Assembly: GCF_003697345.1 (NCBI RefSeq)
Contig: NZ_RFLY01000010.1
Coordinates: 40,070-104,069 of the forward strand
From: Solilutibacter pythonis
GTDB taxonomy: Bacteria > Pseudomonadota > Gammaproteobacteria > Xanthomonadales > Xanthomonadaceae
Length of the DNA: 64,000 nt
Direction of reading: 5' to 3'
The notes under the pieces: model-generated
Told to the model about the DNA's origin: nothing
Database searches by the model: none
The model's input: the letters and a program-made list of their open reading frames with translations, nothing else
Made by a program: the position numbers and the translations under genes
Shown here: one piece after another, positions 25,367-44,330 of the stretch
How the letters are laid out: each line of letters starts with the position of its first letter
Numbering within the stretch: position 1 is the first letter of the stretch

Positions 25367-25446
25367 GCCGCAAGTCAAGCCTTGCCCCCACCGCTCCCCA
25401 TCCCTACCCTGACGCCCTGTCCCGCGCACCGCGCCCACGGGAACGC

Positions 25447-28983
<3,537 letters not shown>

Positions 28984-29010: not shown

Positions 29011-29039
29011 TTGACACCCTTTCATGTAAGCCATAACTT
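29011..29039 (+). promoter_or_regulatory. candidate sigma70-type promoter of the seven-gene operon
   Basis: TTGACA (29011-29016), a 17-nt spacer, then TAACTT (29034-29039), ending 7 nt before the ATG at 29047. The ORF track's TTG 'start' at 29011 is more plausibly this -35 element. Confidence 0.35.
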
Positions 29040-29046
29040 CGCTTAC

Positions 29047-29688
29047 ATGAAAGCCTCCCGGACCCCCAGCCCCTCCACCCTGCACCAGCGCGCCTACCGC
29101 GAGCGGATGCGCCAGGCCGGGCTGGTGAAGAAGGATGTCTGGATCCGCCCGGAATACGCCGGGGAACTCACGGCCATCGAAAAACGCATGCGCGAATCCG
29201 GCCCCGAGACCGCCGCGCCCGGCCCGTGGACGGACGACGGCAACCGCTGGAGCCTTTCATCGATCCACCATGCCCTCGGCCAGACCAGCGCCGCCGGCGA
29301 TGGCCTGATCGGGCTGGAATGGGTCGCGGGCCTCGACCCCGGCCTGCATCTCACCCTGCACGAATACGGCGGCCTGTCGATGTTCATCGCCATCGGCGGC
29401 GAACAAGTGATCGCCGAATGCTGGCTGTGGCCGCTCTCGGCGGTGGCCGATCCGGCCGCCTTCAATGCCCACGTCCTGGCCACCCACAAACTACTGCCAC
29501 TATCGGCCGTCGGCATCGAGACCGTCGGAGGCGTGGCCGGCTACACCATGTTCGGCGCACTGGACGTGCGTTCCAGCCTGGCCAGCCTGATGTTCGAAAT
29601 CGAAGCGCTGGCCGGCAACGTGATCGAGGCGAGCGAAGCCTGGCTCGGCTACCTGAAACCCGAACATGCCGCCGGGGACGCATCGTGA
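29047..29688 (+). CDS. hypothetical cytoplasmic protein, YjfI-like (DUF2170-like core with an N-terminal DUF3018-like basic segment)
   Basis: 213 aa. The N-terminus …STLHQRAYRERMRQAGLVKKDVWIRPEYAGEL… resembles the short DUF3018 ribbon-like motif. The C-terminal ~130 aa (…LEWVAGLDPGLHLTLHEYGGLSMFIAIGGEQVIAECWLWPLSAV…) is followed by a PspA-like gene, as in E. coli yjfI-yjfJ. Family calls are from memory. Confidence 0.5.
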   Translation: MKASRTPSPSTLHQRAYRERMRQAGLVKKDVWIRPEYAGELTAIEKRMRESGPETAAPGPWTDDGNRWSLSSIHHALGQTSAAGDGLIGLEWVAGLDPGLHLTLHEYGGLSMFIAIGGEQVIAECWLWPLSAVADPAAFNAHVLATHKLLPLSAVGIETVGGVAGYTMFGALDVRSSLASLMFEIEALAGNVIEASEAWLGYLKPEHAAGDAS

Positions 29689-30359
29689 GCCCGCTGCGCG
29701 AGTTGTTCGAACGCTTGCAGGCCGAAGTCGACCAGATCGAGAAAACCCTGCGCGGCCAGGCCGCCGAACGCATGCTGGACGAGGAAATCCGCGAAATCGA
29801 CACAGCCCTGCGCGACTGGCGAAACGAAGCCGCGGCCACCAAGGCGCGCATCCTCACCACCGCCGAACGCGAGAAATCGCTATCGGCCGAGATCCGCGTG
29901 CTGGAGAGCGAGGCGATCGCCGCACTGCAAGCGCGACGCAAGCGCGACGCCACCGAAATCGCCGGCGACATCGCCCGGCGCGAAGCCGCCCGCGACGACG
30001 AGCGGCAGGCGCTCAGGCAACTGCGCCAGCACCAGCGCGCCATGCTGCGCGTCATCGAACAGGGCGAACACAAGCAGCGCCGGCTGAAACATCAATTCGA
30101 TACCCTGCGCGCCAGCGAAATCCTGCAACGCGCGCAAGCTGCGGTGGCGCGCCGCCAGCCCGGTGACGCGCCGCACCCGGAAAGCGCGGTAGCCTCGGTC
30201 AAACGCGCCCGCGCGGCCAAGCAAGAGGGGACGAAAACGCCACGCAAGCCCGCCACGACACACACCAGCGCCGCCGACGCCGTGCTGGCGCGCCTACGCG
30301 CCCGCGCCGACGCCGCCCCCGCAAGCCCCGCCCGCAAGCCCACCGGGAAACACCCATGA
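29685..30359 (+). CDS. PspA/IM30-family-like coiled-coil protein (YjfJ-like)
   Basis: 224-aa entirely helical, charged-heptad sequence (…LRELFERLQAEVDQIEKTLRGQAAERMLDEEIREIDTALRDW…). GTG start overlaps the upstream stop (GTGA). The C-terminal tail is low-complexity and Ala/Pro/Lys-rich. Confidence 0.5.
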   Translation: MSPLRELFERLQAEVDQIEKTLRGQAAERMLDEEIREIDTALRDWRNEAAATKARILTTAEREKSLSAEIRVLESEAIAALQARRKRDATEIAGDIARREAARDDERQALRQLRQHQRAMLRVIEQGEHKQRRLKHQFDTLRASEILQRAQAAVARRQPGDAPHPESAVASVKRARAAKQEGTKTPRKPATTHTSAADAVLARLRARADAAPASPARKPTGKHP

Positions 30360-30970
30360 ACGCCTTTCTACAAACCACGCTGACCTTCCCCACCGTGCTG
30401 TGGAGCGTGCTGTTCGCGTTCTGCGCGATCTACTGGCTGCTGGCCGCCTTCGGCATCCTCGACCTGGATTTCGGCGATGCCGAACCGCCCGATTCCACCG
30501 CCGCCACCGGCGTGCTGGCGCGCTTCGGGCTGGGCGGCGTGCCGCTGATGGTGGCACTGGCGCTGGTGACGTTCTTCGGCTGGATCATCAGTTACTTCGT
30601 GCAACTGCTGCTGCTCGGCCAGTTGTCCGGCGCGCTGCGGCTGGCCGGCGGCATCGTCACCGCCGTACTGGCCCTGGCCCCGGCGGTACTGGCAAGCTCG
30701 CTACTGCTGCGCCCGCTGCGAAAATTCATCGCCCGGCTGCGTCCCGCCGTCCCGCCCTCGCTGCTTGGCCGCGTCGGCACCGTCACCACCCCGCGAGTGG
30801 ACGAAAAAGACGGCATGGCCAAGTTCGACGACGGCGGCGCCGGCCTGCGCCTGCAAGTACGCGCCAGGGCGCCCGACACGTTCAAGCGCGGAGACCGCGT
30901 GGTGCTGCTGGAATACCGCGACGCCGACAACACCTGGCGGGTGATTTCCGAGGCCCGCTTCAACCGCTGA
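30356..30970 (+). CDS. NfeD/YqiJ-like inner membrane protein (TM region plus C-terminal OB-fold)
   Basis: 204 aa with 3-4 TM helices followed by …GRVGTVTTPRVDEKDGMAKFDDGGAGLRLQVRAR…GDRVVLLEYRDADNTWRV…, an NfeD-type beta-barrel. ATG overlaps the upstream stop. It sits directly upstream of a flotillin gene, like E. coli yqiJ-yqiK. Confidence 0.6.
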   Translation: MNAFLQTTLTFPTVLWSVLFAFCAIYWLLAAFGILDLDFGDAEPPDSTAATGVLARFGLGGVPLMVALALVTFFGWIISYFVQLLLLGQLSGALRLAGGIVTAVLALAPAVLASSLLLRPLRKFIARLRPAVPPSLLGRVGTVTTPRVDEKDGMAKFDDGGAGLRLQVRARAPDTFKRGDRVVLLEYRDADNTWRVISEARFNR

Positions 30971-31028
30971 CCGATTCGTTCCTCCCCCTCACCGGATGCC
31001 CCGCATCCGCCTTCAAGGAGTTGTGCAA

Positions 31029-32972
31029 ATGACACTGGAAATGATCCTTCCGTTCCTGGTCGGGCTTGGCGTCCTGATCATCCTGATATTCGGCCTGATC
31101 GTCATCTTCAAGGCGTTCTATCTCAAGGTCGAGCAAGGCACCGCGCTGATCGTCAACGACATGAGCGCCAAGCCCAAGGTGCATTTCACCGGCGCGCTGA
31201 TCATCCCGGTGCTCTACAAGGCCGAAGTGATGCGGATCAGCCTCATCACCCTCCAGGTCGACCGCCGCGGCAAGGAGGGCCTGATCTGCCGCGACAACAT
31301 GCGCGCCGATATCACCGTGGCCTATTACCTGCGCGTCAACGAAACCACCGAGGACGTGCTGAAGGTGGCCAAGGCCGTCGGCGTCGACCGCGCCTCCGAC
31401 CGCCATGCGGTGGACGAACTCTTCAACGCCAAGTTCTCCGAAGCGCTGAAAACCGTCGGCAAGAAGTTCGAGTTCATCGAACTGTTCGAGAAACGCGACG
31501 AATTCCGCGACGAGATCGTCAAGGTCATCGGCAAGGACCTGAACGGCTACGTGCTGGAGGATGTCGCCATCGACTACCTGGAACAGACGCCGAAGAACCT
31601 GCTCGACCCGAGCAACATCCTCGATGCCGAAGGCATCCGCAAGATCACCGAGCTGACCGCGACGCAGAACATCATCACCAACGAACTGGCGCAGAACGAA
31701 CGCCTGGCGATCACCAAGAAGAACGTCGAGACCCGCGAAGCCACCCTGGCGCTGGAACGCCAGCAGGCCGAGGCCGAAGCACGCCAGAAACGCGAGATCG
31801 AAACCATCCAGGCCCGCGAGTCCGCCGAAACCGAGAAGGTCAAGGAAGAACAGCGGCTGTTGGCCGAACAGGCGCGACTCGAAGCCGAGGAGAAGATCCA
31901 GATCCGCGACCAGGAGCTGCAACGCCAGGTGGAAGTGGCCGAGCAGAACCGCCGCCGCGCGGTGGGTATCGAAGCCGAGCGCGTCACCCGCGCGACCAAA
32001 ATGGAAGCCGTCACCACCGACCGCGAAGTCAAGTTGCAGGAAGTCGAACGCGACAAGGCGGTCGAGCAGGGCGTGATGGACGTGGCCAACATCACCCGCG
32101 AGCGCATCGCCATCGACAAGACCGTGGCGATGGAGGAAGAGCGCATCAACGAAGTGCGCGAAGTCTCCGCCGCCGACCGCGCCAAACAAGTGCGCGTGCT
32201 GGAAGCCGAAGCCTCCGCGCAGGAAGCGCTGGTGCGCGAGATCAAGGCCGCCGAGGCCGGCGAAACCGCCGCCAAGCACCGCGCGGTGGAAATGACCACG
32301 CTGGCGCAGGCCGAATTCGACGCCGCCACCCGCCAGGCCGACGCCAAGAAAGCGCTGGCCGAGGGCGTCAAGGCCGAGCGGGCCGCGCCGGGCCTGGCCG
32401 AAGCATTGGTCAAGGAAGCCGGCGCCACCGCCATCGAGAAGGTCGGCGCGGCCGAGGCGCGTGTGATCGAGGCCAAGGCCGAGGCCCAATACAAGCAAGG
32501 CAACGCCGATGCCCGCGTGCTGGCCGAGCGCATGGCCGCCGAGGCCGAGGGCGCCTCGAAGATGGGCGATGCCCAGGCGCACGCCACCGCGCGCAAGATG
32601 GCGGCGGAGGCCGAAGGGCTGGTCGCCAAGTTCGAAGCGATGGGCAAGATGAGCGACGAGGCGCGCAGCCACGAGGAATACCGCATGGCGCTGCAAACCA
32701 GCCTGGAGCAGGCGCTGGCGCAGATCGAGGCCGGCAAGGAAATCTCGCGAGAGAACGCCGAGGTCATCGCCACCGCGCTGCGCAACGCGCGCATCGACCT
32801 GGTGGGTGGCGAGGGCGGCATGTTCGACTCGCTCTCGCGCGCCATCTCGCTGGGCAAGTCGGTGGAAGGCTTCGCCGCCAAAAGCCCGCTGGTGCAAGAG
32901 CTGATGCAGCGCTACCTCGGCGTCAGGCACGACGCCGAGTCCGCGCCGCTGGCGATGGCGCGGAAGGAATAA
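31029..32972 (+). CDS. flotillin / SPFH (band-7) family protein, YqiK-like, 647 aa
   Basis: N-terminal TM helix (MTLEMILPFLVGLGVLIILIFGLIVIF), an SPFH domain (…TALIVNDMSAKPKVHFTGALIIPVLYKAEVMRISL…), and a very long Ala/Glu/Arg-rich coiled-coil flotillin tail. Confidence 0.85.
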   Translation: MTLEMILPFLVGLGVLIILIFGLIVIFKAFYLKVEQGTALIVNDMSAKPKVHFTGALIIPVLYKAEVMRISLITLQVDRRGKEGLICRDNMRADITVAYYLRVNETTEDVLKVAKAVGVDRASDRHAVDELFNAKFSEALKTVGKKFEFIELFEKRDEFRDEIVKVIGKDLNGYVLEDVAIDYLEQTPKNLLDPSNILDAEGIRKITELTATQNIITNELAQNERLAITKKNVETREATLALERQQAEAEARQKREIETIQARESAETEKVKEEQRLLAEQARLEAEEKIQIRDQELQRQVEVAEQNRRRAVGIEAERVTRATKMEAVTTDREVKLQEVERDKAVEQGVMDVANITRERIAIDKTVAMEEERINEVREVSAADRAKQVRVLEAEASAQEALVREIKAAEAGETAAKHRAVEMTTLAQAEFDAATRQADAKKALAEGVKAERAAPGLAEALVKEAGATAIEKVGAAEARVIEAKAEAQYKQGNADARVLAERMAAEAEGASKMGDAQAHATARKMAAEAEGLVAKFEAMGKMSDEARSHEEYRMALQTSLEQALAQIEAGKEISRENAEVIATALRNARIDLVGGEGGMFDSLSRAISLGKSVEGFAAKSPLVQELMQRYLGVRHDAESAPLAMARKE

Positions 32973-33044: not shown

Positions 33045-36000
33045 ATGACCGATTTCCCCGCCGAACACGCGCCAACCCCCACCGTCGATCAGGCCGTCGC
33101 CGAGGGCGGCGCCTACGAGGTGCTGAAAAAACGCCTCGAAACCCAGGGCGAACGCCTGCGGCAGACCGCGGAAACGCTCAACCAGGAGCGTCTGGCCGAG
33201 TTCGGTGACAGCCGCATGGCGCTAGCCGGGCGCTTCCGCATCCGCAGCGAGAACAACTGCGTGGGCCGCGACATCGTGCAGGTCGGCGACCTGCTGCTGT
33301 TCGGCTTCAACGTCTTCATCGGCCTCAAGACCGCCACCACGCTGCACGACGTTTTCGGCCTCTACCGGCTGGTGGACACCGACCAGGGCCACGACGTCGA
33401 ACCGGTGGATTTCGCCGGCACCTTCCTCTCCGAGCCGACCTTCGTCCGCGATTTCGACGAGTTGTACGCCTACTACAAACACGCCCGCCTGCTGCAACTG
33501 GTGGTGCGCGAAGGCAAGCTCCTGGCCGCCTTCCAGATCGGCGAGCGCAGCACCGACATGCGGGTGTTCCGCTGGTCGATCGCCGCCAGCGGCGAGGTGA
33601 GCTACATCGACGCGCGCGGCGAGCGCGACATCGCCCTGCCCGCGCCGTTCGATTTCGAGTGGCGGCGCGCCGGCCGCGAGATGGAGGTCAGCGGGCGCTT
33701 CCCGCACCTCAACATCCTCGACACGCTGTTCGTCGACACCACCGGCGGCGACCTCACCATCAAGATCGAGAACAACACCGAAACCGGCAAGGGCATCTTC
33801 GCCGAGCCGGTGGAGGACACCACCCAATCGATCGACGACGCCCGCATCGAGTTCGCCCACGTCGGCTCGCTGATCCTGCTGAAGGTGCTGCCATACCGCG
33901 AAAGCGAATGGCGCGGGCTGGTCTACAACACCCTGACCCGCAAGGTGACGCGCATCGACGCCATCGTGCAAGCCTGCGTACAGTTGCCCGAAGACCACGG
34001 CATCATCTTCCCCGGCGGCTCCTACCTGCAAAACGGCGAATACAAGGCGTTCGACGCCACCATGCGCGGCATGCAGTTCAAGCGCGCGATCCGCTCGCCC
34101 AACGGCGAGGACGTGCTCTATGTCTTCTACGAACGCGAAAGCGGACTGGCCGCGCTGTTCGTCTACAACCTGATCCAGCGCGGCCTGCAAAACCCGGTCT
34201 TCGCCCACGGCTACGCGCGGCTGCCCGATGGCCGCATGGTGCTGTTCCACGCCGAGAACAACGAGCCGACCCGCGTCCACCAGATGCAGCTCTGGCTGAC
34301 GCCCTTCGCCAGCGACGAATACGCCGCCGCCACGCCCCCCGGCAACAGCTTCATGGGCCGGCTCGGCAATGCCGAACTGGTGCGCGGCATCTCCAACCTC
34401 TACGACCTGGCCCGCGCCATCGATGCCCCCGAGGTCTCCGCCCAGCGCTACCTGCTGCTGACCGAACAGACCCGGCGGCTGTTCGACCAACACCACTGGA
34501 TCGACGACACTCACTGCCACGGCCTGTCCAGCCTGCTGCACGAGATCAGCGCGACCGGCGAATCGGTGCTGGACGAATTCGAGAAAGTCGAATCGATCCG
34601 CGCCCAGTCCGATGCGGCGATGAGCGAAGCGCACGCCGAACAGCGCCGGCTGCTGGGCCGCTTGCAGCCGGACTCGTGGAGCCGCGTCGAGGAATTCGTC
34701 GAAGCGCTGAATGCGATCACCACCCAGCGCGGCCACCTGCTCACCATCCGCGAATACCGCTACATCGATACCGCCGCCATCGACCGGATGGCCGGCGAAT
34801 TGCGCGAGGCGCATGCCCGCATCGGCACGGCCACCGGCGAATTCCTCGCCGGCGACAAAGCCCTGGCCCCGCTCAACGACCGCCTCCAGCAGCTCGACGC
34901 CGCCGCGCAAAAGGCCGACACCGCGCGCCTGCTCGGCGAGGAAGTGCAGGCGATGAACGCGATGTCCACCGATCTCAACATGCTCTCCGAGCTGATGGCG
35001 AGCCTCAAGGTGGATGACGCCAACCAACGCGCCCGCGTGGTAGAGGCGATCTCCGGCCTCTATGCCCGGCTCAACCAGGCCCGCGCGCGCGCCGAACAAA
35101 AACACCGCACGCTCGGCGCCAGCGAGGCGGTCGCGCAATTCGGCGCGCAATTCGCGCTGTTCGGCCAATCCATCGCCAGCGCGCTCGGCATGGCCAACTC
35201 CCCGGAACGCGCCGACGAACAGCTCTCGCGGCTCATGGTGCAGTTGGAGGAACTGGAAGGCCAGTTCGGCGAACACGAGCAGTTTCTCGGTGACATCCTC
35301 GCCAAGCGCGAGGAATTGCTGGAAACCTTCGAGACGCACAAACAGGCCCTGCTGGACGAACGCCAACGCAAGGCGCAATCGGTGCTGGACGCCGCCAACC
35401 GCATCCTCGACGGGCTGGCCAAACGCACCGAACGCTTCGACGCCCCGGACGCGCTCAACGCCTTTTTCGCCACCGACCCGCTGGTGCTGAAGCTGCGCGA
35501 GCTATCCGAGCGCCTGCGCGAATTAAAAGACCCGGTCAAGGCCGATGACGTTGAAGCCCGGCTCAAGTCCACCCGCGACCAAGCGGTACGCGTACTGCGC
35601 GACCGCAACGACCTGTTCGAGGACGGCGGCAACGTCATCCGCATGGGCCGCCACCGTTTCAACGTCAACCCCCAGCCGCTCGACCTCACCGTGCTGCCGC
35701 GCGGCGAGCACCTCGCCGTACACCTCACCGGCACCGATTACATGCAGCCGCTTGAGGACGATGCGCTCGACGCGCTCCGCCCGTTCTGGCACGTCACGCT
35801 GGATTCGGAATCGCCCGAGGTCTATCGCGGCGAATACCTGGCCGCCGAGATCATGGCGGCGGCCCGCGCGGGCCGCGATGGCCTGGATGACGAACGCCTG
35901 CTGCAAGCCGCCGCCGCCCCGGACGAACTCGCCGCCCTGGTGCGCGAATTCGCCGCGCCACGCTACCGGGAAGGCTACGAAAAGGGCATCCACGACCACG

Positions 36001-38327
36001 ATGCCGCACGCATCCTCGGCGCCCTGCTGCCCCTTGAGCGCGGCGCGGGCACACTGATCCACCCGCCGCTGGCGCGTGCGTTGGGCGCCTTGTTCTGGCA
36101 CCACATCGGCGGCGGCCAGCAGCTCTGGCGCGAGCGCATCGTCAATGCGGCGGCGATGCGCCGATTGTTCGGCCGCGATGACGGCTTCAACGAAGCCATC
36201 GACCAGTTGGCCGGCGAAATCGCCGCATTCCTCGACGACCACGGCATCGAACACCAGACAGGCAGCACCCGCCAGAGCGCCGGCTGGCTGGCCGACGAAC
36301 TGGCCGATGGCGAAACCCACCTCGGCTTCAGCCGGCAGTCCGAACAACTCGCGCGGGCATTGACCGCACGCTTGGACAACGCCGGCTCGCTGGCCGCCTT
36401 CCGCCAATCGCTGGCCACACTGGAGAACCCGGGCGAACGCTGGCGGCTGATGCTGCACTGGCTGAACGCCCTCGCCGCGCAGGACGAACACGCCACGCTG
36501 GCGCGCTTCGCACCGGAAGCCGCCGCGCTGAAACTGATCGGCGAGAGCGTGCCCCACCGTATCCACGACGCCGCACTGGAAGCCGAGATCGACGGCCTGC
36601 TCGGGGAACACCCGCGCATCGGCGAAGGCCGGCTGCGTTTGTCCATCGACGAATTCCGCCAGCGCCTCGGCCATCATCGTGAAGCGTTCGTGCCCGCCTT
36701 CCACCGCTACCAGAAACTGCGGCAACAGGTCATCGCCGATCAACGCGAACGCCTGCGTCTGTCCGAATACCAGGCCCGCCCGCTGACGTCGTTCGTGCGC
36801 AACCGGCTGATCAACGACATCTACCTGCCGATCATCGGCGACAACCTGGCCAAGCAGATGGGCACGGCCGGCGAGTCCAAGCGCAGCGACCTGATGGGAC
36901 TGCTGATGCTGATCTCGCCGCCCGGCTACGGCAAGACCACGCTGATGGAATACGTCGCCAACCGTCTGGGCCTGGTCTTCATGAAGATCAACGGCCCGGC
37001 GCTGGGGCACGAGGTGCGCTCGCTCGACCCCGCGCAAGCGCCGGACGCCACCTCACGGCGGGAACTGGAAAAACTCAACTTGGCGCTGGAAATGGGCAAC
37101 AACGTGATGTTGTACGTCGACGACATCCAGCACACCCATCCCGAATTCCTACAGAAATTCATCTCGCTCACCGACGGCACTCGCCGCATCGAGGGCGTCT
37201 GGCGGGGTCGCACCCGTACCTACGACATGCGCGGGCGCAAGTTCGCGGTGGTGATGGCCGGCAACCCCTATACCGAATCCGGCGAAGTGTTCCGCATCCC
37301 CGACATGCTGGCCAACCGCGCCGACATCTACAACCTGGGCGACGTGCTGGACGGCATGGAGGACGCCTTCCTGTCGAGCTATGTCGAAAACAGCCTGACC
37401 TCCAACCCCGTGCTGGCCCCGCTCGCCACCCGCGACCTCAAGGACCTCCACGTACTTGTGGACAAGGCGCTGGGCAAGGAGGTTTCCACCAGCACGCTTT
37501 CCCACGCCTATGGCGCGGCCGAGATCAACGACATCACCGCCACGCTGGAAAAGCTGATCGCGGTGCGGCAGGTGATCTACCGGGTCAACCAGCAATACAT
37601 CGCCAGCGCCGCGCAGGCCGACCAATACCGCACCGAACCCCCGTTCAAGTTGCAGGGCAGCTACCGCAACATGAACAAGCTGGCCGAGAAAATCGCCCCG
37701 GTGATGAACGACGCCGAGTTGCAGCAACTCATCTCCGACCACTACCTCGGCGAATCGCAATTGCTCACCACCGGCGCGGAAGAAAACCTGCTGAAACTGG
37801 GCGAACTGCGCGGCACCCTGGATGCCGGAGAAACCGCGCGCTGGGCGCAGATCAAGGCCGACTTCCTCCGCAACAAGGCGATGGGCGCGGACGATGCCGA
37901 CATCGGCGGCCGCGTGGTGGCGCAACTGGCCGACATCGCCGGCGGGCTGCAAACGCTGAAACCCACATCGCCCGTGCAGACCGAAGCCGCGCCCTGGGCC
38001 GAACTGCTCGCCAGCCTGCACGCCATCGGCCAGCGCGGCGCATCGGACGAGGCCCGGCTCGCCGACCTGCCCGACGCGCTCGCCCGGCGCATCGACCCGC
38101 TGCTGTCCAGCGTGGCCGATGCGCAGACGCGGCAAACCCAGCTCAACGAATCCCTGCTGCGCCTGGCCGACGCCCTGCGCGAAGGGCTGCTGCGCCCGCC
38201 CACCGCCGCACGCCCCGGGAAACCGGCGCCACGCGCCAAGAACCCCGCGCTGGAAAAACTCGACCGCGAACTCGGCAAGGTGAACTTCCAACGCCACCGC
38301 CCCGCGGACAAACCCGACCCGGCATGA
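33045..38327 (+). CDS. very large (1760 aa) hypothetical protein with a single AAA+ (MoxR/dynein-related AAA_5-like) ATPase module near residue ~1290
   Basis: Walker A …LISPPGYGKTTLMEY… (nt ~36924), Walker B …VMLYVDDIQ…, and an AAA_5-like sensor …FAVVMAGNPYTESGEVFRIPDMLANRADIY…. The ~1250-aa N-terminal region and the ~300-aa Ala/Leu-rich C-terminal region have no motif I recognise. 72 bp downstream of the flotillin gene. Confidence 0.8.
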   Translation: MTDFPAEHAPTPTVDQAVAEGGAYEVLKKRLETQGERLRQTAETLNQERLAEFGDSRMALAGRFRIRSENNCVGRDIVQVGDLLLFGFNVFIGLKTATTLHDVFGLYRLVDTDQGHDVEPVDFAGTFLSEPTFVRDFDELYAYYKHARLLQLVVREGKLLAAFQIGERSTDMRVFRWSIAASGEVSYIDARGERDIALPAPFDFEWRRAGREMEVSGRFPHLNILDTLFVDTTGGDLTIKIENNTETGKGIFAEPVEDTTQSIDDARIEFAHVGSLILLKVLPYRESEWRGLVYNTLTRKVTRIDAIVQACVQLPEDHGIIFPGGSYLQNGEYKAFDATMRGMQFKRAIRSPNGEDVLYVFYERESGLAALFVYNLIQRGLQNPVFAHGYARLPDGRMVLFHAENNEPTRVHQMQLWLTPFASDEYAAATPPGNSFMGRLGNAELVRGISNLYDLARAIDAPEVSAQRYLLLTEQTRRLFDQHHWIDDTHCHGLSSLLHEISATGESVLDEFEKVESIRAQSDAAMSEAHAEQRRLLGRLQPDSWSRVEEFVEALNAITTQRGHLLTIREYRYIDTAAIDRMAGELREAHARIGTATGEFLAGDKALAPLNDRLQQLDAAAQKADTARLLGEEVQAMNAMSTDLNMLSELMASLKVDDANQRARVVEAISGLYARLNQARARAEQKHRTLGASEAVAQFGAQFALFGQSIASALGMANSPERADEQLSRLMVQLEELEGQFGEHEQFLGDILAKREELLETFETHKQALLDERQRKAQSVLDAANRILDGLAKRTERFDAPDALNAFFATDPLVLKLRELSERLRELKDPVKADDVEARLKSTRDQAVRVLRDRNDLFEDGGNVIRMGRHRFNVNPQPLDLTVLPRGEHLAVHLTGTDYMQPLEDDALDALRPFWHVTLDSESPEVYRGEYLAAEIMAAARAGRDGLDDERLLQAAAAPDELAALVREFAAPRYREGYEKGIHDHDAARILGALLPLERGAGTLIHPPLARALGALFWHHIGGGQQLWRERIVNAAAMRRLFGRDDGFNEAIDQLAGEIAAFLDDHGIEHQTGSTRQSAGWLADELADGETHLGFSRQSEQLARALTARLDNAGSLAAFRQSLATLENPGERWRLMLHWLNALAAQDEHATLARFAPEAAALKLIGESVPHRIHDAALEAEIDGLLGEHPRIGEGRLRLSIDEFRQRLGHHREAFVPAFHRYQKLRQQVIADQRERLRLSEYQARPLTSFVRNRLINDIYLPIIGDNLAKQMGTAGESKRSDLMGLLMLISPPGYGKTTLMEYVANRLGLVFMKINGPALGHEVRSLDPAQAPDATSRRELEKLNLALEMGNNVMLYVDDIQHTHPEFLQKFISLTDGTRRIEGVWRGRTRTYDMRGRKFAVVMAGNPYTESGEVFRIPDMLANRADIYNLGDVLDGMEDAFLSSYVENSLTSNPVLAPLATRDLKDLHVLVDKALGKEVSTSTLSHAYGAAEINDITATLEKLIAVRQVIYRVNQQYIASAAQADQYRTEPPFKLQGSYRNMNKLAEKIAPVMNDAELQQLISDHYLGESQLLTTGAEENLLKLGELRGTLDAGETARWAQIKADFLRNKAMGADDADIGGRVVAQLADIAGGLQTLKPTSPVQTEAAPWAELLASLHAIGQRGASDEARLADLPDALARRIDPLLSSVADAQTRQTQLNESLLRLADALREGLLRPPTAARPGKPAPRAKNPALEKLDRELGKVNFQRHRPADKPDPA

Positions 38328-38962
38328 CCACCGCCCAGGCCGAATCGCTGCTCGAACGCGCCCGCCAAGTGCGAGCCGCCCAGGCCGCGTTCATCGCCGG
38401 GCCGTCGCCGACGGCGCGCATCATCGCCCTGTTCGACGACATCCGGCTGGCCTTCATCGCCACCGACAAAGTGGCGCTCGGCCGCCGCGCCGGCTGGCTG
38501 GGCAGGCTGCTCGGGCGCGACATCGACATCCAGGCCGAAGCCGAACTGCTGCGTGCGCAGGGGCCGCTGCTGGTGCATCGTGCCGACGAACTGGCGCGGG
38601 AATGGGACTCGCACTTGTCCCGGCTGGAAGCGCAATGCGATGCCGTGACCGCCATGCAAAGCGAGCTGGACACCGCCCTGGGCCAGACGCAAACCGCCGC
38701 CGCCGACGCCATCCGGCAACGCCTGCAACAAATGCGCCTGCTGTTCGACCTGAGCGCCGCGCAAAACACCGCCCTGCGCGCGCGGCACCGACAACTCGGC
38801 CGCCGCTTCGCCGCCATCCGCGCCGGCCTGTTGCCCATGCTGGCGCAAACCGGCATTGTGGACGCCGCCCACCGCGACCAGCGCCTGTATGCCGATGCCA
38901 ACGACGCACTCCAATCGCTGGAACGACGCCTCACCGACACCGCCAACGGGAACACGCCATGA
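38324..38962 (+). CDS. hypothetical helical protein (212 aa)
   Basis: ATG overlaps the stop of the 1760-aa ORF (ATGA). Ala/Arg/Leu-rich predicted helical or coiled-coil protein with no recognisable motif. Confidence 0.6.
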   Translation: MTTAQAESLLERARQVRAAQAAFIAGPSPTARIIALFDDIRLAFIATDKVALGRRAGWLGRLLGRDIDIQAEAELLRAQGPLLVHRADELAREWDSHLSRLEAQCDAVTAMQSELDTALGQTQTAAADAIRQRLQQMRLLFDLSAAQNTALRARHRQLGRRFAAIRAGLLPMLAQTGIVDAAHRDQRLYADANDALQSLERRLTDTANGNTP

Positions 38963-40044
38963 ACCAGGGACAAGACCTCGCCACCTTGCCAGACCATAAG
39001 TCGCTGAAGCAACTGGGCCTCACCGAAGCCGACCTGCCACGCATCGCCGAAGCCGCCAAGCCCCTGGCCGACATCAGGCCCGCCAACCTGCACCGCTACG
39101 GCGGCGAAGCGGCCACCCGCACCACCGGTTTCTCCACCCGCTTGCTCGACAAGGTGCGCAACACCGATCTGGACGCCTCCGGCGACAAGCTGGGCGAAGT
39201 GGTCAAGATCGCCCGCGGCCTGAACCTGGACGCCTTCGCCAACCGCTCCAAACTCCCGATCATCGGCCCCCTGATCGACAAGCTGAAGGCCAGCCGAGAC
39301 GATCTGATCCAGAAATACAGCACCACCAACGCGCAGATCGACCAACTGATGCGCGAGGTCGGCCAGACCCAGGCAAGGCAGTCGGAACGCGTGCGCGAAT
39401 ACGAGCAGATGCACGAGATCGTCCGCGAGGAGCACCGCGAACTTGGCATCCACGTCGCCGCCGGCCGCCAACGGCTGACGGAACTCCATGCCGAACTCTC
39501 GGCCCTCGACGGACAGGACGACCCCGAATCGCGGATGCGCCGCGGCGAGCTTGATACCGCCCTGCGCGTGCTGGACAAGCGCGTCTCCGACCTGCATCTG
39601 CTACAGCACGCCACCGAACAAACCCTGCCGATGATCCGGCTGATCCAGGCCAACGCCCTCCAGTTGATCGAGAAATTCGGCGCGGTGCGCGACATCACCC
39701 TACCGATGTGGCGCAACCAGTTCGCCATCCAGCTATCGCTGGCCGACCAGAAGAACGCCGTGCGACTGGCCGACGCCATCGACGAAGCCAGCAACGAGCT
39801 GATGCGCCGCAATGCCGAACTGATGCACCAGACCTCGGTGGACACGGCCCGCGCCAACCAGCGCGGCGTGCTCGACATCGAAACATTGCGCATGGTCAAC
39901 GACAAGCTGATCCAGACCGTGGAGGAAGTCCGCCAGATCCACCGCGAGGGCATGGCCCAGCGCCGCCAGGCCAGCGAAGAGATCGACCGCATGCGCGAGG
40001 ACGTGCAAAAACGCCTGGCCGCCACCGCCGCCGATCCGGCCTGA
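38959..40044 (+). CDS. TelA-like toxic anion resistance family protein (361 aa)
   Basis: …LHRYGGEAATRTTGFSTRLLDKVRNTDLDASGDKLGEVVKIARGLNLDAF… matches the conserved TelA/KlaB N-terminal block as I remember it. The remainder is a long coiled coil. ATG overlaps the upstream stop (ATGA). Confidence 0.65.
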   Translation: MNQGQDLATLPDHKSLKQLGLTEADLPRIAEAAKPLADIRPANLHRYGGEAATRTTGFSTRLLDKVRNTDLDASGDKLGEVVKIARGLNLDAFANRSKLPIIGPLIDKLKASRDDLIQKYSTTNAQIDQLMREVGQTQARQSERVREYEQMHEIVREEHRELGIHVAAGRQRLTELHAELSALDGQDDPESRMRRGELDTALRVLDKRVSDLHLLQHATEQTLPMIRLIQANALQLIEKFGAVRDITLPMWRNQFAIQLSLADQKNAVRLADAIDEASNELMRRNAELMHQTSVDTARANQRGVLDIETLRMVNDKLIQTVEEVRQIHREGMAQRRQASEEIDRMREDVQKRLAATAADPA

Positions 40045-40155
40045 GCGCGGCCGCCGGCCCGGCATGGCGGCACGTCCCGCCTCCGCCGTATGGGGGCGTC
40101 GCCCCCCATCCGCTAAAATCCATCCTCACTCCAAGCGCCGCAGGTTCCATCGCGC

Positions 40156-41109
<954 letters not shown>

Positions 41110-41116
41110 GGCGCGC

Positions 41117-41857
41117 ATGTCACCGTTCATCATCTTCTCGCTGCTGCTGCAAATCGCCTGCGCGGTGCATGTGGTGCGCAGCGGACGGCCGCTGTACTGG
41201 ATCTTCATCATCCTGATCGGCTCCTTTATCGGCATGGCGATCTATTTCCTGGCCGAAGTACTGCCGGAACTGCGCGACACCCGCGGCGGCCAGCGGACGA
41301 TCAGGCGCGTCAGGGACCGCATCGACCCCGACCGCCACAAGCGCCAGGCGAGCCGGCAATTGGACCTGGCCGACACCCCCGCCAACCGCAAACGGCTGGC
41401 CGAAGAAAGCCTGGCCCGTGGCGACTTCCTCATGGCCGAAAGCCAATTTCGCACCGCCATGCAGGGGCTGTACCAGACCGATCCCGACCTGATGCTGGGC
41501 CTGGCCCAGGCGCAATTCGGGCTTGACCAGCCGCGCGCCGCGCGCGAAACGCTGGATCGGCTGATCACCGCCAACCCCGATTTCCGCTCGCACGAAGGGC
41601 ATCTGCTTTACGCCCGCGCGGTGGAAGCCTGTGGCGAGCACACCGCCGCCCTGCACGAATACGAAGCCCTGGTGCAAGGCTTCCCCGGCGAGGAAGCACG
41701 CATCCGCCAAGCCCAACTGCTGGAAAAGATGGGCCACGACGCCCAGGCACAAGCGCTCTATGCCGAAACCCTAAAACGCGCCGACCTGCTGCCCGCCTAT
41801 TACCGGCGCGAACAGAAACCGTGGATCGCCATCGCCCGGCAACGCCACGAGGGGTGA
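41117..41857 (+). CDS. membrane-anchored TPR-like repeat protein
   Basis: Two N-terminal TM helices, then TPR-like helical repeats (…AESQFRTAMQGLYQTDPDLMLGLAQAQF…). Overlaps the tilS ORF start by ~37 nt. Confidence 0.6.
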   Translation: MSPFIIFSLLLQIACAVHVVRSGRPLYWIFIILIGSFIGMAIYFLAEVLPELRDTRGGQRTIRRVRDRIDPDRHKRQASRQLDLADTPANRKRLAEESLARGDFLMAESQFRTAMQGLYQTDPDLMLGLAQAQFGLDQPRAARETLDRLITANPDFRSHEGHLLYARAVEACGEHTAALHEYEALVQGFPGEEARIRQAQLLEKMGHDAQAQALYAETLKRADLLPAYYRREQKPWIAIARQRHEG

Positions 41858-43155
41858 GGCGGCGCACCGCCAACGCCCTCGACGCGGCCATCGCCGCGCT
41901 GCCCGGCGCGCCCGCCGGCCTGTTGGTAGGCTTCAGCGGCGGGCTGGATTCCAACGTGCTGCTGCACGCGCTGGCGCGCACGTACAAGGAAGCGGTGCGC
42001 GCGATCCACGTCCACCACGGATTGCAGCCGGAAGCCGATGCCTGGGCCGCCCATTGCCAGCGCATATGCGCCGAGCTGAAAGTGCCCTTGGTCGTCGCCC
42101 GCGTCCAAGTGAACGATCACGGCCACGGCCCGGAGGCCGCCGCGCGCCATGCGCGCCACAGCGCCTTTACCGCCCATCTGCGCCCCGGCGAGACACTGGC
42201 CCTGGCGCACCACCGCGACGACCAGGCCGAAACCTTCATGCTCCGCGCCCTGCGCGGCTCCGGGCCGGACGGGCTTGCCGCGATGCGCGAATGGCGAAAC
42301 TTTCACCACGGCCACCTGTGGCGACCGCTGCTACCGCTTCCCCGCGCATGGCTGCTGGAATATGCCCACGCGCATGGCCTGCGCTGGATCGAAGACCCGA
42401 GCAACGCCCACACCGACCTCGACCGCAACTGGCTGCGCCACGAAGTGATGCCGAAACTCGCCGCGCGCTGGCCGCAAGCGGCCGCCGGCTTCGCTCGCGC
42501 CGCCGCCCTGCAAGCCGAAGCCGTGACCATGCTTCAAGCCGACGAAACCGAAGCCGGTTTCACCCCCGGCGCGCCTCTCGCGCTGGCGCCCCTTCGCGTA
42601 TTACCGGTGGGCCGGGACGCGCGCCGCTTCCGTACCTGGTGCGAAGCGAACGGCCTACCGCCGCCACCGGCGCGCGGCATCGACTGGCTGCGGGCCGAGC
42701 TGGCGAAACCCACCGACGATGGCGCCGCCGAGCTGCACTGGGGCGGCGCGTGTATTCGGCGTTGGCGCGATGGCCTGTGGGTCGATGCCGGCCTCGCCGC
42801 CCTGCCGCAAGGCTTCAGCATCGATTGGGATGGCCATGCGCCACTGGCATTGCCCAACGGCATCGTCTGGCGGCTGCACGGCGTCCCCGGCTTCGACGCC
42901 CCGCTGCGCGCCGCCGCGCGCAGCGGCGGCGAGCGCATCCACCTGCCGCGCCGCGCGCACCGCCACCAGCTCAAGCACGTGCTGCAAGAAGCCGGCATGC
43001 CGCCATGGCGGCGGCGCGCGCTGCCCTTGCTATGGAATACGGCCGGCGAACTGCTGGCCGCCGGCGACGTCCATTCCGCCCCCCTGGCCACATGGCTGGC
43101 CCAGAACCACGCCCGGTTGCAACTGGAATGGCCCGTCCCCCCGGCCCGCAATTGA
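41821..43155 (+). CDS. tilS: tRNA(Ile)-lysidine synthetase
   Basis: …[18 protein letters not shown]… is the PP-loop SGGxDS motif. Exact start is uncertain. Confidence 0.8.
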
Positions 43156-43186
43156 CCCTGCCGTCCCCGCCGCGCACACTTCGCCC

Positions 43187-43447
43187 ATGGCACGCAAAGC
43201 ATCCGAAAAGCCACCGGCCTCCCCGGTCGCCGATTTCGAACACTCGCTGGACGAACTCGAACAACTGGTCGAGCGAATGGAGACCGGCGAGCTGTCGCTG
43301 GAAGAATCGCTCACCGCCTACGAGCGCGGCGTCGGCCTGTACCGGAAATGCCAAAGCGCCCTGGAAGAGGCCGAACTACGCGTGCGACTGCTCTCCGACC
43401 CGCAAGACCCCGCCAGCGCCGAAACCTTCCAAGACACCGATGAGTGA
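43187..43447 (+). CDS. xseB: exodeoxyribonuclease VII small subunit
   Basis: …[50 protein letters not shown]… is the canonical XseB sequence. Confidence 0.9.
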
Positions 43448-44330
43448 GCCTGCCGATGTCCACGCCCGCCTCGCCGGCTGGCGTGCGCGGGCCGAGGCCG
43501 CGCTCGAACGCATCCTGCCCTCGCCCGACGATTCGCCGCAACGCCTGCATGCCGCCATGCGCCATGCCGCGCTCAATGGCGGCAAGCGTATCCGGCCGCT
43601 GCTGGCCTACGCCACCGGCCACGCGCTCGGCGTCAACGACGACGCCCTCGACGATGCCGCGCTCGCGGTCGAACTGATCCACTGTTATTCGCTGGTCCAC
43701 GACGACCTGCCGGCCATGGACGACGACACCCTACGCCGTGGCCAGCCCACCGTGCACGTCGCCTACGACGAGGCCACCGCGATCCTCGCCGGCGATGCGC
43801 TGCAAGCATTGGCCTTCGCCCGCATCGCCGAGGCGCCGCTCGCCGCCGATGTCCGCATCGCCATGCTGCGCGCGCTGGCCCACGCCAGCGGCCACGCCGG
43901 CATGTGCGGCGGCCAGGCGCTGGACATCGACGCCACCGGCCAGCGCATCGACATCGGACAACTGCAAGACCTGCACGCACGCAAGACCGGCGCGCTGCTA
44001 CGCGCCTCGGTGCGGCTGGGCGCGCTGGCCGCGAACGCCAGCCCGGCGCAAACGAACGCGCTCGAACGCTACGCCCGCGCGCTCGGCCTGGCCTTCCAGA
44101 TCAAGGACGACCTGCTCGATATCGAAGGCGACAGCGCCACGCTCGGCAAGACCCCCGGCAAGGACATCCAGCAGGACAAGGCGACCTTCCCCGCGTTGAT
44201 CGGCGTCGAGGCATCGCGACGGCGGCTGGACGAACTGACGCGGGCGATGCGCGCCGCCCTGGCCGAACTCGACGCCGATACCCGCCTGCTGGCCGAACTG
44301 GCGCGGCAAGTGGTGGAACGCGACCGCTGA
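43440..44330 (+). CDS. ispA: farnesyl diphosphate synthase
   Basis: …[23 protein letters not shown]… (first DDxxD) and …FQIKDDLLD… (second DDxxD). The ATG overlaps the xseB stop. Confidence 0.9.

Follow-up and report, generated by a model that had tools for sequence, protein, structure and literature searches.

The question raised by this locus is what a very large protein with one ATPase module does among genes for membrane proteins. The window analysed here is a stretch of 64 000 nucleotides from Solilutibacter pythonis (contig NZ_RFLY01000010.1, positions 40 070 to 104 069, forward strand). A preliminary description, made from the letters alone, had drawn attention to a 1760-residue protein in which an AAA+ module is preceded and followed by some 1550 unassigned residues, and which lies close to a flotillin and a PspA-like protein. 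In bacteria, flotillins and ESCRT-III homologues of the PspA type assemble into large membrane structures, and no dedicated ATPase is known to build or dismantle them.

The gene and its family

33045..38327, + strand: DUF3686-DUF7902-AAA+ gene (BacE/PA3728 family; PGAP 'DNA repair ATPase'), identified from the open reading frame, GC3 and full-length homologues

The list of open reading frames and the translation give an ATG start and 1760 residues. GC3 is 0.84-0.91 in all 600-nucleotide slices, so the entire frame is coding, and the reading frame as first described is real from end to end. The product is 100% identical to the NCBI entry 'AAA family ATPase [Lysobacter pythonis]' (Lysobacter/Solilutibacter pythonis).

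Pfam DUF3686 (PF12458) matches residues 38-484 (E = 2.3e-191, 636 bits, model positions 2-448 of 448) and DUF7902 (PF25472) matches residues 605-688 within the helical region (nucleotides 34857-35108, E = 4.5e-22). Both are families of unknown function, but they cover much of the sequence that had been called unassigned. The same Pfam set of DUF3686, DUF7902 and AAA is present in all 239 homologues among the matches listed. Full-length collinear homologues, 26-82% identical, occur in Proteobacteria, Bacteroidota, Verrucomicrobiota, Planctomycetota and Sumerlaeia. Query coverage is 96-100% in nearly all of the close matches, and tblastn alignments span residues ~5-1650 in loci from the last four of these groups. 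Clustered at 50% identity, the family comprises at least 1345 clusters, and it is present in the genomes of at least 588 species from at least five phyla. Judged by its sequence, the protein is a member of a widespread and already catalogued DUF3686-DUF7902-AAA+ family that includes BacE/PA3728 of Pseudomonas aeruginosa. The novelty implied by the preliminary description has to be withdrawn; the Pfam family has thousands of members, the operon appears in Ravi et al. (2024; PMC11237479) and bacE in PMC10948618. Family, architecture and gene context are thus in the literature, and the missing part is experiment.

A full-length match to a characterized family with a context unrelated to membranes was looked for; the family that matched is uncharacterized and its neighbours are membrane proteins. 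Our literature search found no mention of DUF3686. Scans of the protein against NCBIfam, PADLOC and PHROGs returned P-loop or coiled-coil noise only, and searches of PDB sequences, with the single sequence and with a family profile, gave P-loop matches of ~35-65 residues and no solved relative.

Domain architecture

AlphaFold models, computed with 45 sequences, divide the protein as follows.

33111..33203, + strand: N-terminal helix ahead of the propeller, residues 23-53 (pLDDT 82-94)
33219..34298, + strand: predicted beta-propeller, residues 59-418, the core of Pfam DUF3686 (DSSP strands of the model, pLDDT mostly 85-94)
34314..35615, + strand: predicted helical stalk, residues 424-857, with 13 helices of 4-58 residues and including DUF7902 (DSSP, pLDDT 70-90)
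35634..36764, + strand: middle domain, residues 864-1240 (pLDDT ~90)
36765..37334, + strand: AAA+ alpha/beta core, residues 1241-1430 (motifs listed below)
37335..37964, + strand: helical lid and C-terminal helical extension, residues 1431-1640 (model helices, conservation profile)
37965..38324, + strand: non-conserved tail, probably disordered, residues 1641-1760 (alignment columns, pLDDT)

The idea that a beta-rich N-terminal part is followed by long helices is borne out by the model, in which the propeller precedes a stalk of about 430 residues, and the contention that such an architecture is unlike stand-alone MoxR, McrB, ClpB or dynein is supported. The propeller would have about seven four-stranded blades, a count taken from the DSSP strand pattern and not from coordinates. 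Conserved residues of the N-terminal helix are Tyr24, Glu25, Arg30, Leu31, Leu38, Leu45, Arg49 and Phe53. The middle domain is predicted to consist of a small beta-hairpin unit (864-903) and an all-alpha region (928-1165), followed by three short strands and then by the long helix (1201-1237) that leads into the ATPase; His893, Arg928, Gly981, His983, Asp984 and Asp986 are invariant (residue numbers are A4 numbering plus 859). The Ala/Leu-rich C-terminal tail of ~300 residues proposed earlier is only partly upheld. Residues ~1431-1640 form a conserved helical lid and extension, and ~1641-1760 alone are a non-conserved tail, with column identity of 0.08-0.14 and 59-75% gaps when distant homologues are compared and pLDDT below 55 for the modelled part beyond residue ~1630.

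Fold searches with the propeller, the stalk and the middle domain gave no functional clue. Foldseek against the PDB with a model of residues 1-900 found generic propellers only (clathrin terminal domain, IFT-A, nucleoporins and prolyl oligopeptidase; E ~1e-5). We considered protocoatomer homology for the propeller and helices and rejected it, the clathrin, IFT-A and nucleoporin matches having TM-scores of 0.1-0.2. In PADLOC the stalk has weak coiled-coil matches to JetC and LeoA only (E = 0.002-0.006). The sequence profile of the middle domain has no relative in the PDB and, in the fold searches, the AAA+ module alone was found among the matches listed. The protein has no convincing transmembrane segment; the adjoining flotillin and YqiJ-like protein are membrane proteins.

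The AAA+ module

36915-36941, + strand: Walker A SPPGYGKTT, residues 1291-1299 (Lys1297)
37107-37124, + strand: Walker B MLYVDD, residues 1355-1360 (Asp1359, Asp1360)
37185-37226, + strand: pre-sensor-1 beta-hairpin, two modelled strands at residues 1381-1394 between the Walker B and sensor-1 strands
37257-37271, + strand: sensor 1 AGNPY, residues 1405-1409 (Asn1407)
37314-37325, + strand: NRAD, with Arg1425 as candidate arginine finger, in PDMLANRADIY (residues 1419-1429)
37653-37667, + strand: QGSYR in the lid (Gln, Gly, Ser, Tyr and Arg invariant)

The Walker A, Walker B and sensor motifs had been assigned correctly (the position given for the first, ~36924, falls within 36915-36941), as had the presence of one ATPase module, since the whole protein holds a single P-loop. 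Arg1541 stands where a lid helix of the model starts and is on that ground a candidate sensor 2. In an alignment of 45 sequences spanning 36-67% identity, Lys1297, Asp1359, Asp1360, Asn1407, Arg1425 and Arg1541 are invariant, and the family motifs SPPGYGKT, DDIQH, MAGNPYTESG, NRAD.YNLG and QGSYR are all present and invariant. The AAA+ core is ~85% conserved between phyla. These invariant residues support the view that the module is catalytically competent.

Two features bear on the mode of action. Walker B ends in Asp-Asp, with aspartate in place of the usual catalytic glutamate, in all aligned members, which suggests slow hydrolysis, and the loop between beta2 and alpha2 carries no aromatic pore-loop residue. 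Together these make a classical substrate-threading unfoldase doubtful, and the protein may be a nucleotide switch or clamp instead.

The module is of the MoxR/dynein type with a helical lid, as judged from the model, and the AAA_5 profile matches residues 1287-1410 (29.8 bits against a cut-off of 22). It nevertheless differs from the MoxR/dynein/midasin group (Pfam AAA_5). There is one module where dynein and midasin have six, ~1250 residues of non-ATPase domains precede it, Walker B is Asp-Asp and a VWA partner is lacking. The model has no evident helix-2 insert; in it a conserved 18-residue loop precedes an uninterrupted helix (residues 1335-1350) without a hairpin. One alternative is a MoxR-type maturation chaperone that has nothing to do with flotillin dynamics and inserts a cofactor into, or activates, a membrane enzyme or complex in the manner of CbbQ/CbbO, NorQ/NorD or RavA/ViaA. 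We regard this as highly improbable. Neither the operon in the window nor any of eight distant loci carries a VWA/MIDAS partner; the protein, with a propeller and stalk of its own, is five times as large as a MoxR ATPase; and the conserved neighbours, the flotillin and the YqiJ-like protein alone, include no candidate target enzyme.

The gene cluster

29047..29688, + strand: BacA/YjfI-like protein, DUF2170 (CesT/Tir-like) with a conserved N-terminal extension of ~55 residues (Pfam DUF2170, E = 2e-36)
29685..30359, + strand: PspA/IM30-family protein, YjfJ/BacB-like (Pfam PspA_IM30, E = 4.2e-11, 43 bits against a cut-off of 33.9)
30356..30970, + strand: YqiJ/NfeD-like membrane protein of 204 residues, three hydrophobic segments and a C-terminal beta domain (topology, position)
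31029..32972, + strand: YqiK-type flotillin of 647 residues, N-terminal transmembrane segment, SPFH domain and long Glu/Ala-rich coiled coil (BLASTP, hydrophobic N-terminus; alternative start at 30996)
38324..38962, + strand: helical protein of 212 residues, weakly TelA-like (BLASTP against the adjacent TelA, E = 6e-4)
38959..40044, + strand: TelA, toxic-anion-resistance family, with which the cluster ends in this lineage (Pfam TelA, E = 4e-71)

The structure is that of an operon, with four-nucleotide start/stop overlaps at four junctions (GTGA between the bacA-like and pspA-like genes; ATGA at the start of the YqiJ/NfeD-like gene, between the ATPase and the 212-residue protein, and between the latter and telA, which is translationally coupled to it) and a gap of 72 nucleotides between flotillin and ATPase. 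Both neighbours named in the preliminary description, the flotillin and the PspA-like protein, were found where expected. The flotillin is 29% identical to Escherichia coli YqiK over 470 residues (BLASTP, E = 1e-40) and matches NCBIfam FloT weakly. The BacA/YjfI-like protein scores 213 bits with NCBIfam BacA, below the cut-off of 300; its residues 66-205 match PDB entry 8q8o (E = 1.6e-32) and its N-terminal extension is kept in other loci. The 204-residue membrane protein has a weak Pfam NfeD match (E = 0.27), and its Dysgonomonas counterpart a weak match to YqiJ_N. A pairwise BLAST comparison with E. coli YqiJ gave no significant match, so that the YqiJ/NfeD label is provisional and draws on position, topology and the literature. 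The 212-residue protein has no Pfam, NCBIfam or PDB match. We discarded as an off-frame artefact an Arg/Pro-rich frame of 502 residues at 39708-41216, which overlaps telA and accA, and as high-GC artefacts the long 5' extensions of the frames starting at 24967, 29226, 38602 and 42054.

The cluster is flanked by dnaE upstream and by accA, and here the database name must be considered. If the protein were a true DNA-repair or chromosome-partition ATPase, as PGAP and Pfam call it, its AAA+ ring would work on DNA as RuvB or MCM do. RuvB provides the top Foldseek matches and weak sequence matches, the pre-sensor-1 hairpin is rich in Arg and Lys, and mutations in PA3728 recur among cystic fibrosis isolates (PMC8190622), an observation that points to no particular function. 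Profile scans, however, found no DNA-binding, nuclease or ABC/SMC head domain, and the conserved neighbours are all membrane proteins. The adjacency of dnaE is unique to this genome, as neither dnaE nor accA lies within 10 kb of the ATPase gene in any other Xanthomonadales locus, and we rejected it as a sign of a DNA role. A split ABC head of the SMC/Rad50/RecN type was likewise dismissed, the only P-loop (residues 1291-1299) being within a contiguous AAA+ fold, and the likeness to SMC/JetC is confined to the weak stalk matches noted above. The name appears to be inherited from annotation of the coiled-coil-rich DUF3686 and not from experiment. We give a DNA-repair function almost no credence; the label has no support in this analysis and is almost certainly wrong, on thousands of genes.

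Conservation of gene order

We fetched 85 loci. The YqiK-type flotillin is directly upstream of the ATPase gene and on the same strand in 77; the other eight comprise seven truncated contigs and one Aureibacter genome. Order and strand are the same in 77 of the 77 loci that carry both genes, a link far stronger than one window could have shown. Identities of flotillin and ATPase to the window proteins co-vary (r = 0.90), and the upstream flotillin is still 40-43% identical in Planctomycetota, Verrucomicrobiota and Sumerlaeia. YqiJ/NfeD-like homologues lie upstream of the flotillin in 70 loci, and the triad of YqiJ-like protein, flotillin and ATPase is present in seven of eight loci from distant phyla. 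The Aureibacter genome, with its ATPase but no adjacent flotillin, is an observation that counts against a flotillin-based model.

Other genes are lineage-specific additions to this core, namely those for BacA/PspA, rhomboid, PLD and TelA. The BacA regulator/chaperone and PspA have joined it in many Proteobacteria. What follows the ATPase gene depends on the lineage, a rhomboid in 14 loci, a PLD-like gene in seven and the TelA-like pair in Xanthomonadales, to which TelA (14 of the 85 loci) and homologues of the 212-residue protein are confined. We had considered the 212-residue gene as a universal 'BacF'; jackhmmer finds copies in Xanthomonadales only, and elsewhere the position is taken by rhomboid, PLD-like, zinc-ribbon or unrelated genes.

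The PspA-family gene invites comparison with Vps4 and ESCRT-III, where an AAA+ ATPase is likewise encoded beside a protein of the ESCRT-III superfamily in a setting of membrane remodelling. The ATPase would then disassemble or recycle PspA polymers, with flotillin serving as a membrane platform only. PspA shares the operon in the window and is found in 28 of the 85 loci; it also lies beside the triad in Hymenobacter (co-directional) and in a Verrucomicrobiota genome (divergent). According to a 2025 review bacteria appear to have no Vps4-like ATPase and none is known for bacterial PspA (PMC7619361), and Ravi et al. proposed ESCRT-like ATP-dependent remodelling for PspA-AAA+ associations (PMC11237479). 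Roughly two thirds of the loci lack PspA, however, while flotillin is essentially always present, and in the Verrucomicrobiota genome PspA adjoins an AAA protein of its own, of 559 residues. Unlike Vps4, the giant ATPase belongs to a different AAA+ clade, and an MIT-like domain was not detected by domain search. We consider a Vps4-like role unlikely; these loci point to flotillin, not PspA, as the constant partner.

Relationship to BacE of Pseudomonas aeruginosa

The protein probably corresponds to BacE (PA3728/PA14_16190), as judged from synteny, annotation text and a motif encoded by a primer. None of the 80 loci returned came from P. aeruginosa; ten other loci of the Pseudomonas lineage have, as the window does, the order BacA-PspA-YqiJ-flotillin-ATPase. 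One published RT-PCR primer lies within PA14_16190 and codes for the family motif KNNC, and its partner has its match at the flotillin gene's 3' end in these loci. In the 'biofilm-associated cluster' bacABCDEF of P. aeruginosa, PA14_16190 is co-transcribed and co-regulated with bacA-D and is up 8.9-fold in a bacA mutant (PMC10948618). The clusters differ after the ATPase, where related Pseudomonas-lineage loci have a rhomboid of 183-192 residues (probably BacF) and the window has the 212-residue TelA-like protein followed by TelA.

Ravi et al. (2024) had described the architecture and the operon with CesT/Tir-PspA, flotillin and YqiJ (PMC11237479). Domain description and operon partners are identical to ours, and the occasional PLD-family gene is also seen in our loci. 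Their paper reports no TelA association, the term being absent, whereas the window cluster has TelA, and our model places the propeller first and the helical stalk second.

PA3728-PA3732 are up together in all phage-infected samples (PMC12041424) and rise together in another proteome study (PMC13637947). One could envisage an envelope-linked anti-phage or conflict system, in which YqiJ, flotillin and ATPase form a core of sensor and motor and the downstream genes (rhomboid protease, PLD-family hydrolase, TelA-like) are swappable effectors. The lineage-variable gene after the ATPase resembles effector swapping, TelA matches a phage 'tellurite resistance' PHROG, and genes for GmrSD_N and AAA_23 lie just downstream in Hymenobacter. 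Yet phage induction is also typical of generic envelope-stress (Psp) responses, and PA3731 is also responsive to osmotic shock and has an effect on biofilm (PMC2587700). PADLOC 2.0 gave no significant match, only weak coiled-coil and P-loop matches with E of at least 0.002. In the fetched loci identity declines with taxonomic distance, which fits mainly vertical inheritance and not defence-island mobility. On balance we think a dedicated defence function improbable.

Deletion of PaFlo3, the linked flotillin, lowers biofilm by only ~20% with no strong phenotype (PMC13086221), an observation that does not favour the flotillin model. The operon with BacE is of wider interest, since in P. aeruginosa both biofilm formation and virulence are tied to it, as is the response of the cells to phage infection.

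A proposed flotillin-linked remodeller

Since the gene almost always follows that for flotillin, the ATPase probably serves a flotillin-based membrane-stress module as its ATP-driven partner. We favour, with a probability of roughly 0.55, its being the soluble ATPase subunit of a conserved membrane module made up of the YqiJ/NfeD-like protein, the YqiK-type flotillin and the ATPase, in which it would remodel the flotillin assembly in envelope stress. Architecture, motif conservation, synteny and the co-transcription and co-induction in P. aeruginosa are documented here or in the literature; action on or with the flotillin assembly is what we infer. Gene adjacency speaks for a shared function and does not name the substrate; the target could equally well be PspA, YqiJ or a membrane client. 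The 'mechanochemical scaffold' suggested earlier is not supported and stays a guess.

The C-terminal MoxR/dynein-like modules may assemble into a ring, from which each subunit would extend its stalk of ~430 residues ending in the propeller of about seven blades. The propeller could dock on the cytoplasmic flotillin/NfeD assembly. Binding of ATP and its slow hydrolysis would then remodel this assembly, or proteins held there, by assembly, disassembly or client extraction, and membrane microdomains would be tuned during envelope stress.

SPFH scaffolds repeatedly pair with AAA+ machines, as in HflK/C-FtsH, prohibitin-m-AAA and SLP2-YME1L-PARL. An SPFH membrane scaffold and an AAA+ machine are likewise genetically coupled here. 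The ATPases of HflK/C-FtsH and SLP2-YME1L-PARL are membrane-anchored proteases of the classical clade, whereas the giant ATPase is soluble, lacks a protease domain and belongs to another AAA+ group. By this analogy we tentatively suggest, as a less secure extension, that BacE-family ATPases are dedicated ATP-driven remodellers of a YqiK-type flotillin/NfeD cage and a soluble counterpart of those two systems. Propeller-on-stalk arms might grip the cage while the MoxR-like ring drives assembly, disassembly or client release in envelope stress, with PspA, rhomboid, PLD or TelA as lineage-specific effectors. Were this correct, the missing energy source for bacterial flotillins, and in some lineages for PspA, would have been found. 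The position directly downstream of a particular flotillin in at least five phyla, together with the invariant catalytic residues, makes the protein the obvious candidate for the missing ATPase. The SLP2-YME1L-PARL complex includes a rhomboid, which may parallel the rhomboid gene that follows the ATPase in 14 loci.

Gene cluster in S. pythonis

The ATPase gene lies in a cluster of about 11 kb between dnaE and accA, in which 4-nt start/stop overlaps at four junctions suggest translational coupling.

Genes of the cluster and its flanks, in window coordinates
25447-28983, dnaE
29047-29688 (+), bacA/yjfI-like (DUF2170)
29685-30359 (+), pspA/yjfJ-like
30356-30970 (+), YqiJ/NfeD-like membrane protein (provisional label)
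31029-32972 (+), flotillin
33045-38327 (+), the ATPase
38324-38962 (+), 212-aa helical protein
38959-40044 (+), telA
40156-41109, accA

The product of 31029-32972 aligns with E. coli YqiK (29% identity over 470 residues, E 1e-40), which provides a solid sequence-based assignment as a flotillin; the Pfam scan missed it. The ATPase frame begins with ATG and encodes 1760 aa. Its third-position GC is 0.84-0.91, compared with 0.38-0.58 at position 2, in every 600-nt slice, and the entire frame is therefore coding. The product is 100% identical to the NCBI 'AAA family ATPase' of Lysobacter pythonis (= Solilutibacter pythonis).

In E. coli, dnaE and accA are immediate neighbours. Neither lies closer than 10 kb to the ATPase gene in any of the other Xanthomonadales loci, so that this placement is specific to the S. 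pythonis genome and resembles the outcome of an insertion or a rearrangement. Just past accA, a 246-aa protein (41117-41857) carries TPR repeats and, at its N-terminus, a PLDc_N-type membrane segment; it had no match in any of the 85 related loci and thus probably lies outside the module. The ORF 39708-41216 and the 5' parts of ORFs 24967-28983, 29226-30359, 38602-40044 and 42054-44330 were rejected as high-GC artefacts. They are long, Arg/Pro-rich, without a family match and overlap real genes out of frame. The true starts are 25447 (dnaE), 29685 (pspA-like) and 38959 (telA), and in ORF 42054-44330 a polyprenyl synthetase domain is confined to the last ~260 codons.

Architecture and catalytic motifs of the ATPase

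Two AlphaFold2 models were built on a 45-sequence alignment (identity 26-74%), one of residues 1-900 (mean pLDDT 84) and one of residues 860-1650 (mean pLDDT 87).

Domains of the ATPase (Pfam, then AlphaFold2)
aa 38-484, DUF3686 ('ATPase involved in DNA repair'), E 2e-191, full model length
aa 605-688, DUF7902
aa 1287-1410, AAA_5, 29.8 bits against a cut-off of 22
aa 23-53, N-terminal helix
aa 59-418, beta-propeller of about seven four-stranded blades
aa 424-857, helical stalk, longest helices 58 residues
aa 864-1240, small beta unit and all-alpha region
canonical AAA+ alpha/beta core, pre-sensor-1 hairpin at aa 1381-1394
after the core, helical lid/extension of ~200 residues

Among 43 sequences of mutual identity below 62% the ATPase core is about 85% conserved, and the C-terminal ~120 residues show no conservation. 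The hydropathy maximum (19-residue window) is only 1.58 and falls within a propeller strand, which indicates a soluble protein.

The preliminary description had placed a single ATPase module in this sequence, and its motifs are where it put them: Walker A (SPPGYGKTT, aa 1291-1299, nt 36915-36941), Walker B (MLYVDD, aa 1355-1360), the sensor (AGNPY, aa 1405-1409) and RADIY (PDMLANRADIY, aa 1419-1429), with no second P-loop in the 1760 residues. In the 45-sequence alignment Lys1297, Asp1359, Asp1360, Asn1407, Arg1425 and Arg1541 are invariant. Walker B reads hhhhDD followed by IQH in all aligned members, with DD (D1359/D1360, nt 37119-37124) rather than DE, an aspartate replacing the canonical catalytic glutamate. 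Such a DD Walker B is unusual among AAA+ proteins and recalls the STAND NTPases; it may point to slow hydrolysis. There is no aromatic residue at the usual pore-loop position. Together these two features hint that ATP is used slowly, in a switch-like manner, rather than by a threading unfoldase.

A fold search of the N-terminal half against the PDB gave generic propellers, with low TM-scores, and nothing else. No solved relative was found: PDB searches with the single sequence and with the family profile match the P-loop only. Together with the Pfam result, this bears out the earlier assignment to the AAA_5/MoxR type. The helix-2 insert of the MoxR group is not evident in the model, and the VWA partner typical of that group is not encoded beside the ATPase in the window or in eight distant loci. 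That the protein is a MoxR-type maturation chaperone is very improbable.

The family is large. HMMER with aa 1-1200 against 1.84 billion representative proteins gave at least 1345 clusters at E <= 1e-3 (449 at E <= 1e-30), full-length members being 1600-1900 aa, and relatives turned up in at least 588 species when one genome per species was scanned. When the query was the Aureibacter member (26% identity), full-length members were reached in Bacteroidota, Verrucomicrobiota, Planctomycetota and Sumerlaeia, sharing all three Pfam domains. A word-indexed search returned more than 5300 related proteins, many carrying the PGAP name 'DNA repair ATPase'. A genuine DNA-repair ATPase, as that name and the DUF3686 title would have it, is scarcely credible. 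Pfam, NCBIfam and PADLOC scans found no ABC/SMC head, nuclease or DNA-binding domain, similarity to RuvB is confined to ~45 residues around the P-loop and the dnaE neighbour is peculiar to this genome. Nothing here supports the 'DNA repair' label.

Linkage to the flotillin gene

The tblastn comparison of the window proteins covered 85 loci, of which 80 came from the genome scan and five from distant phyla.

Loci (of 85) with a match to each window protein
flotillin, 77
YqiJ-like, 70
BacA, 30
PspA, 28
TelA, 14 (Xanthomonadales only)
212-aa protein, 9 (Xanthomonadales only)

The eight flotillin-free loci are seven truncated contigs and Aureibacter. Wherever both genes occur (77/77) the flotillin gene is 5' of the ATPase gene on the same strand, and the identities of the two proteins to the window copies are correlated (r = 0.90). 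Even in Planctomycetota, Verrucomicrobiota, Sumerlaeia and Dysgonomonas the flotillin is 40-43% identical to that of the window. Three further distant loci have the orders PspA, 213-aa gene, 722-aa gene, ATPase (Hymenobacter); 226-aa gene, 698-aa gene, ATPase (Prosthecobacter); and 242-aa gene, Band_7 gene, 708-aa gene, ATPase (Aureispira). The conserved core is thus a triad of YqiJ-like, flotillin and ATPase genes, to which PspA/BacA is a common yet dispensable addition. A Vps4-like action of the ATPase on PspA is, with this distribution, a doubtful alternative.

PspA adjoins the triad in more than one arrangement. In a Verrucomicrobiota locus (L003, 3151-5750) a divergent PspA and a separate 559-aa classical AAA protein lie next to it; in the Hymenobacter locus (L087; 4238-4945, 13094-15801) PspA is co-directional with it, and defence-like genes (GmrSD_N and AAA_23) follow.

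That the linkage to one flotillin subfamily is nearly obligate and spans phyla argues for a function shared with the flotillin/NfeD assembly. We put at slightly above one half the probability that the ATPase is, in general terms, an ATP-driven remodeller acting with that assembly. ATPase modules would form a MoxR-like ring bearing propeller-tipped stalks, and the stalks would contact the flotillin cage or its clients under envelope stress, the docking site and substrate being putative. In this family, bacterial flotillin/PspA systems have a well-defined candidate for their missing ATPase.

The gene 3' of the ATPase gene varies with lineage, often with a 4-nt overlap. It encodes a rhomboid-family protein of 182-192 aa in 14 loci (L017, L019, L021, L024, L027, L030, L032-L037, L044, L054), a PLD-like protein of ~230 aa in seven (L016, L020, L023, L025, L028, L058, L076) or a zinc-ribbon protein; in Xanthomonadales the 212-aa protein and TelA follow (window 38324-40044). 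A phage-conflict module, for which such genes would be swappable effectors, is improbable. The trio of SPFH protein, AAA+ ATPase and rhomboid recalls the mitochondrial SLP2-YME1L-PARL complex. No database family was found for the 212-aa protein (38324-38962). A pairwise comparison with the neighbouring TelA gave a weak alignment (24-34% identity, E 6e-4 to 9e-4), and the two proteins may be TelA paralogues that have diverged; neither is mentioned in the PSP neighbourhood paper (PMC11237479).

The P. aeruginosa counterpart

The same operon has already been described, as have abbreviated flotillin-YqiJ-ATPase operons across bacteria and archaea (Ravi et al., 2024; PMC11237479). In P. aeruginosa the cluster is bacABCDEF, with bacE (PA14_16190) and bacF (PA14_16200) co-transcribed with bacA-D by RT-PCR and BacB-F raised 6- to 13-fold in a bacA mutant (PMC10948618). 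The published reverse primer within PA14_16190 encodes PKNNCI, the family's ENNC motif. Ten Pseudomonas-lineage loci, all ordered BacA-PspA-YqiJ-flotillin-ATPase, match the forward primer at the 3' end of their flotillin gene. From this motif and synteny we infer that PA14_16190 belongs to the ATPase family; the 182-192-aa rhomboid-family protein is probably BacF. PA3728-PA3732 are up on phage infection (PMC12041424) and in another proteome study (PMC13637947), PA3728 recurs in cystic fibrosis adaptation gene lists (PMC8190622), and deletion of the flotillin PaFlo3 (BacD) reduced biofilm by only ~20% (PMC13086221). The literature searched reports no biochemical function for any family member.

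Computational descriptions of the gene, its architecture and its context thus exist, and its Pseudomonas counterpart has been named. The present analysis adds that the ATPase gene keeps strictly to the flotillin gene and not to PspA, that Walker B is invariantly DD and that Xanthomonadales loci carry a TelA-like extension; it also adds a candidate BacA operator.

The BacA-like protein and a candidate operator

The BacA-like protein has a conserved N-terminal extension of ~55 residues (consensus KSSAHYQRxFRQRLREQGLVKKEVWILPE...ERKLRQP), which falls outside the region matching the solved 146-residue DUF2170 structure 8q8o and weakly matches the NCBIfam 'plasmid repression protein F' model. In many genera the bacA-like gene is preceded by two palindromic boxes, T(T/C)ACATGT(A/G)A, which lie ~20 nt apart and flank a TTGAC-like -35 element.

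Loci with bacA-upstream boxes
window, 29011-29212, boxes and N-terminal extension
related loci L016-L019, L021, L023, L025, L026, L028, L030, L035, L037, L041
further loci L042, L045, L047, L050, L066, L079

The window carries TTGACA, a 17-nt spacer and TAACTT, and CATGTAAGC-N9-GCTTACATG overlaps the start codon. The extension and the paired boxes suggest that BacA is a DNA-binding autorepressor acting through these candidate operators at a sigma-70-type promoter. Such autorepression would account for the published de-repression of BacB-F in the bacA mutant.
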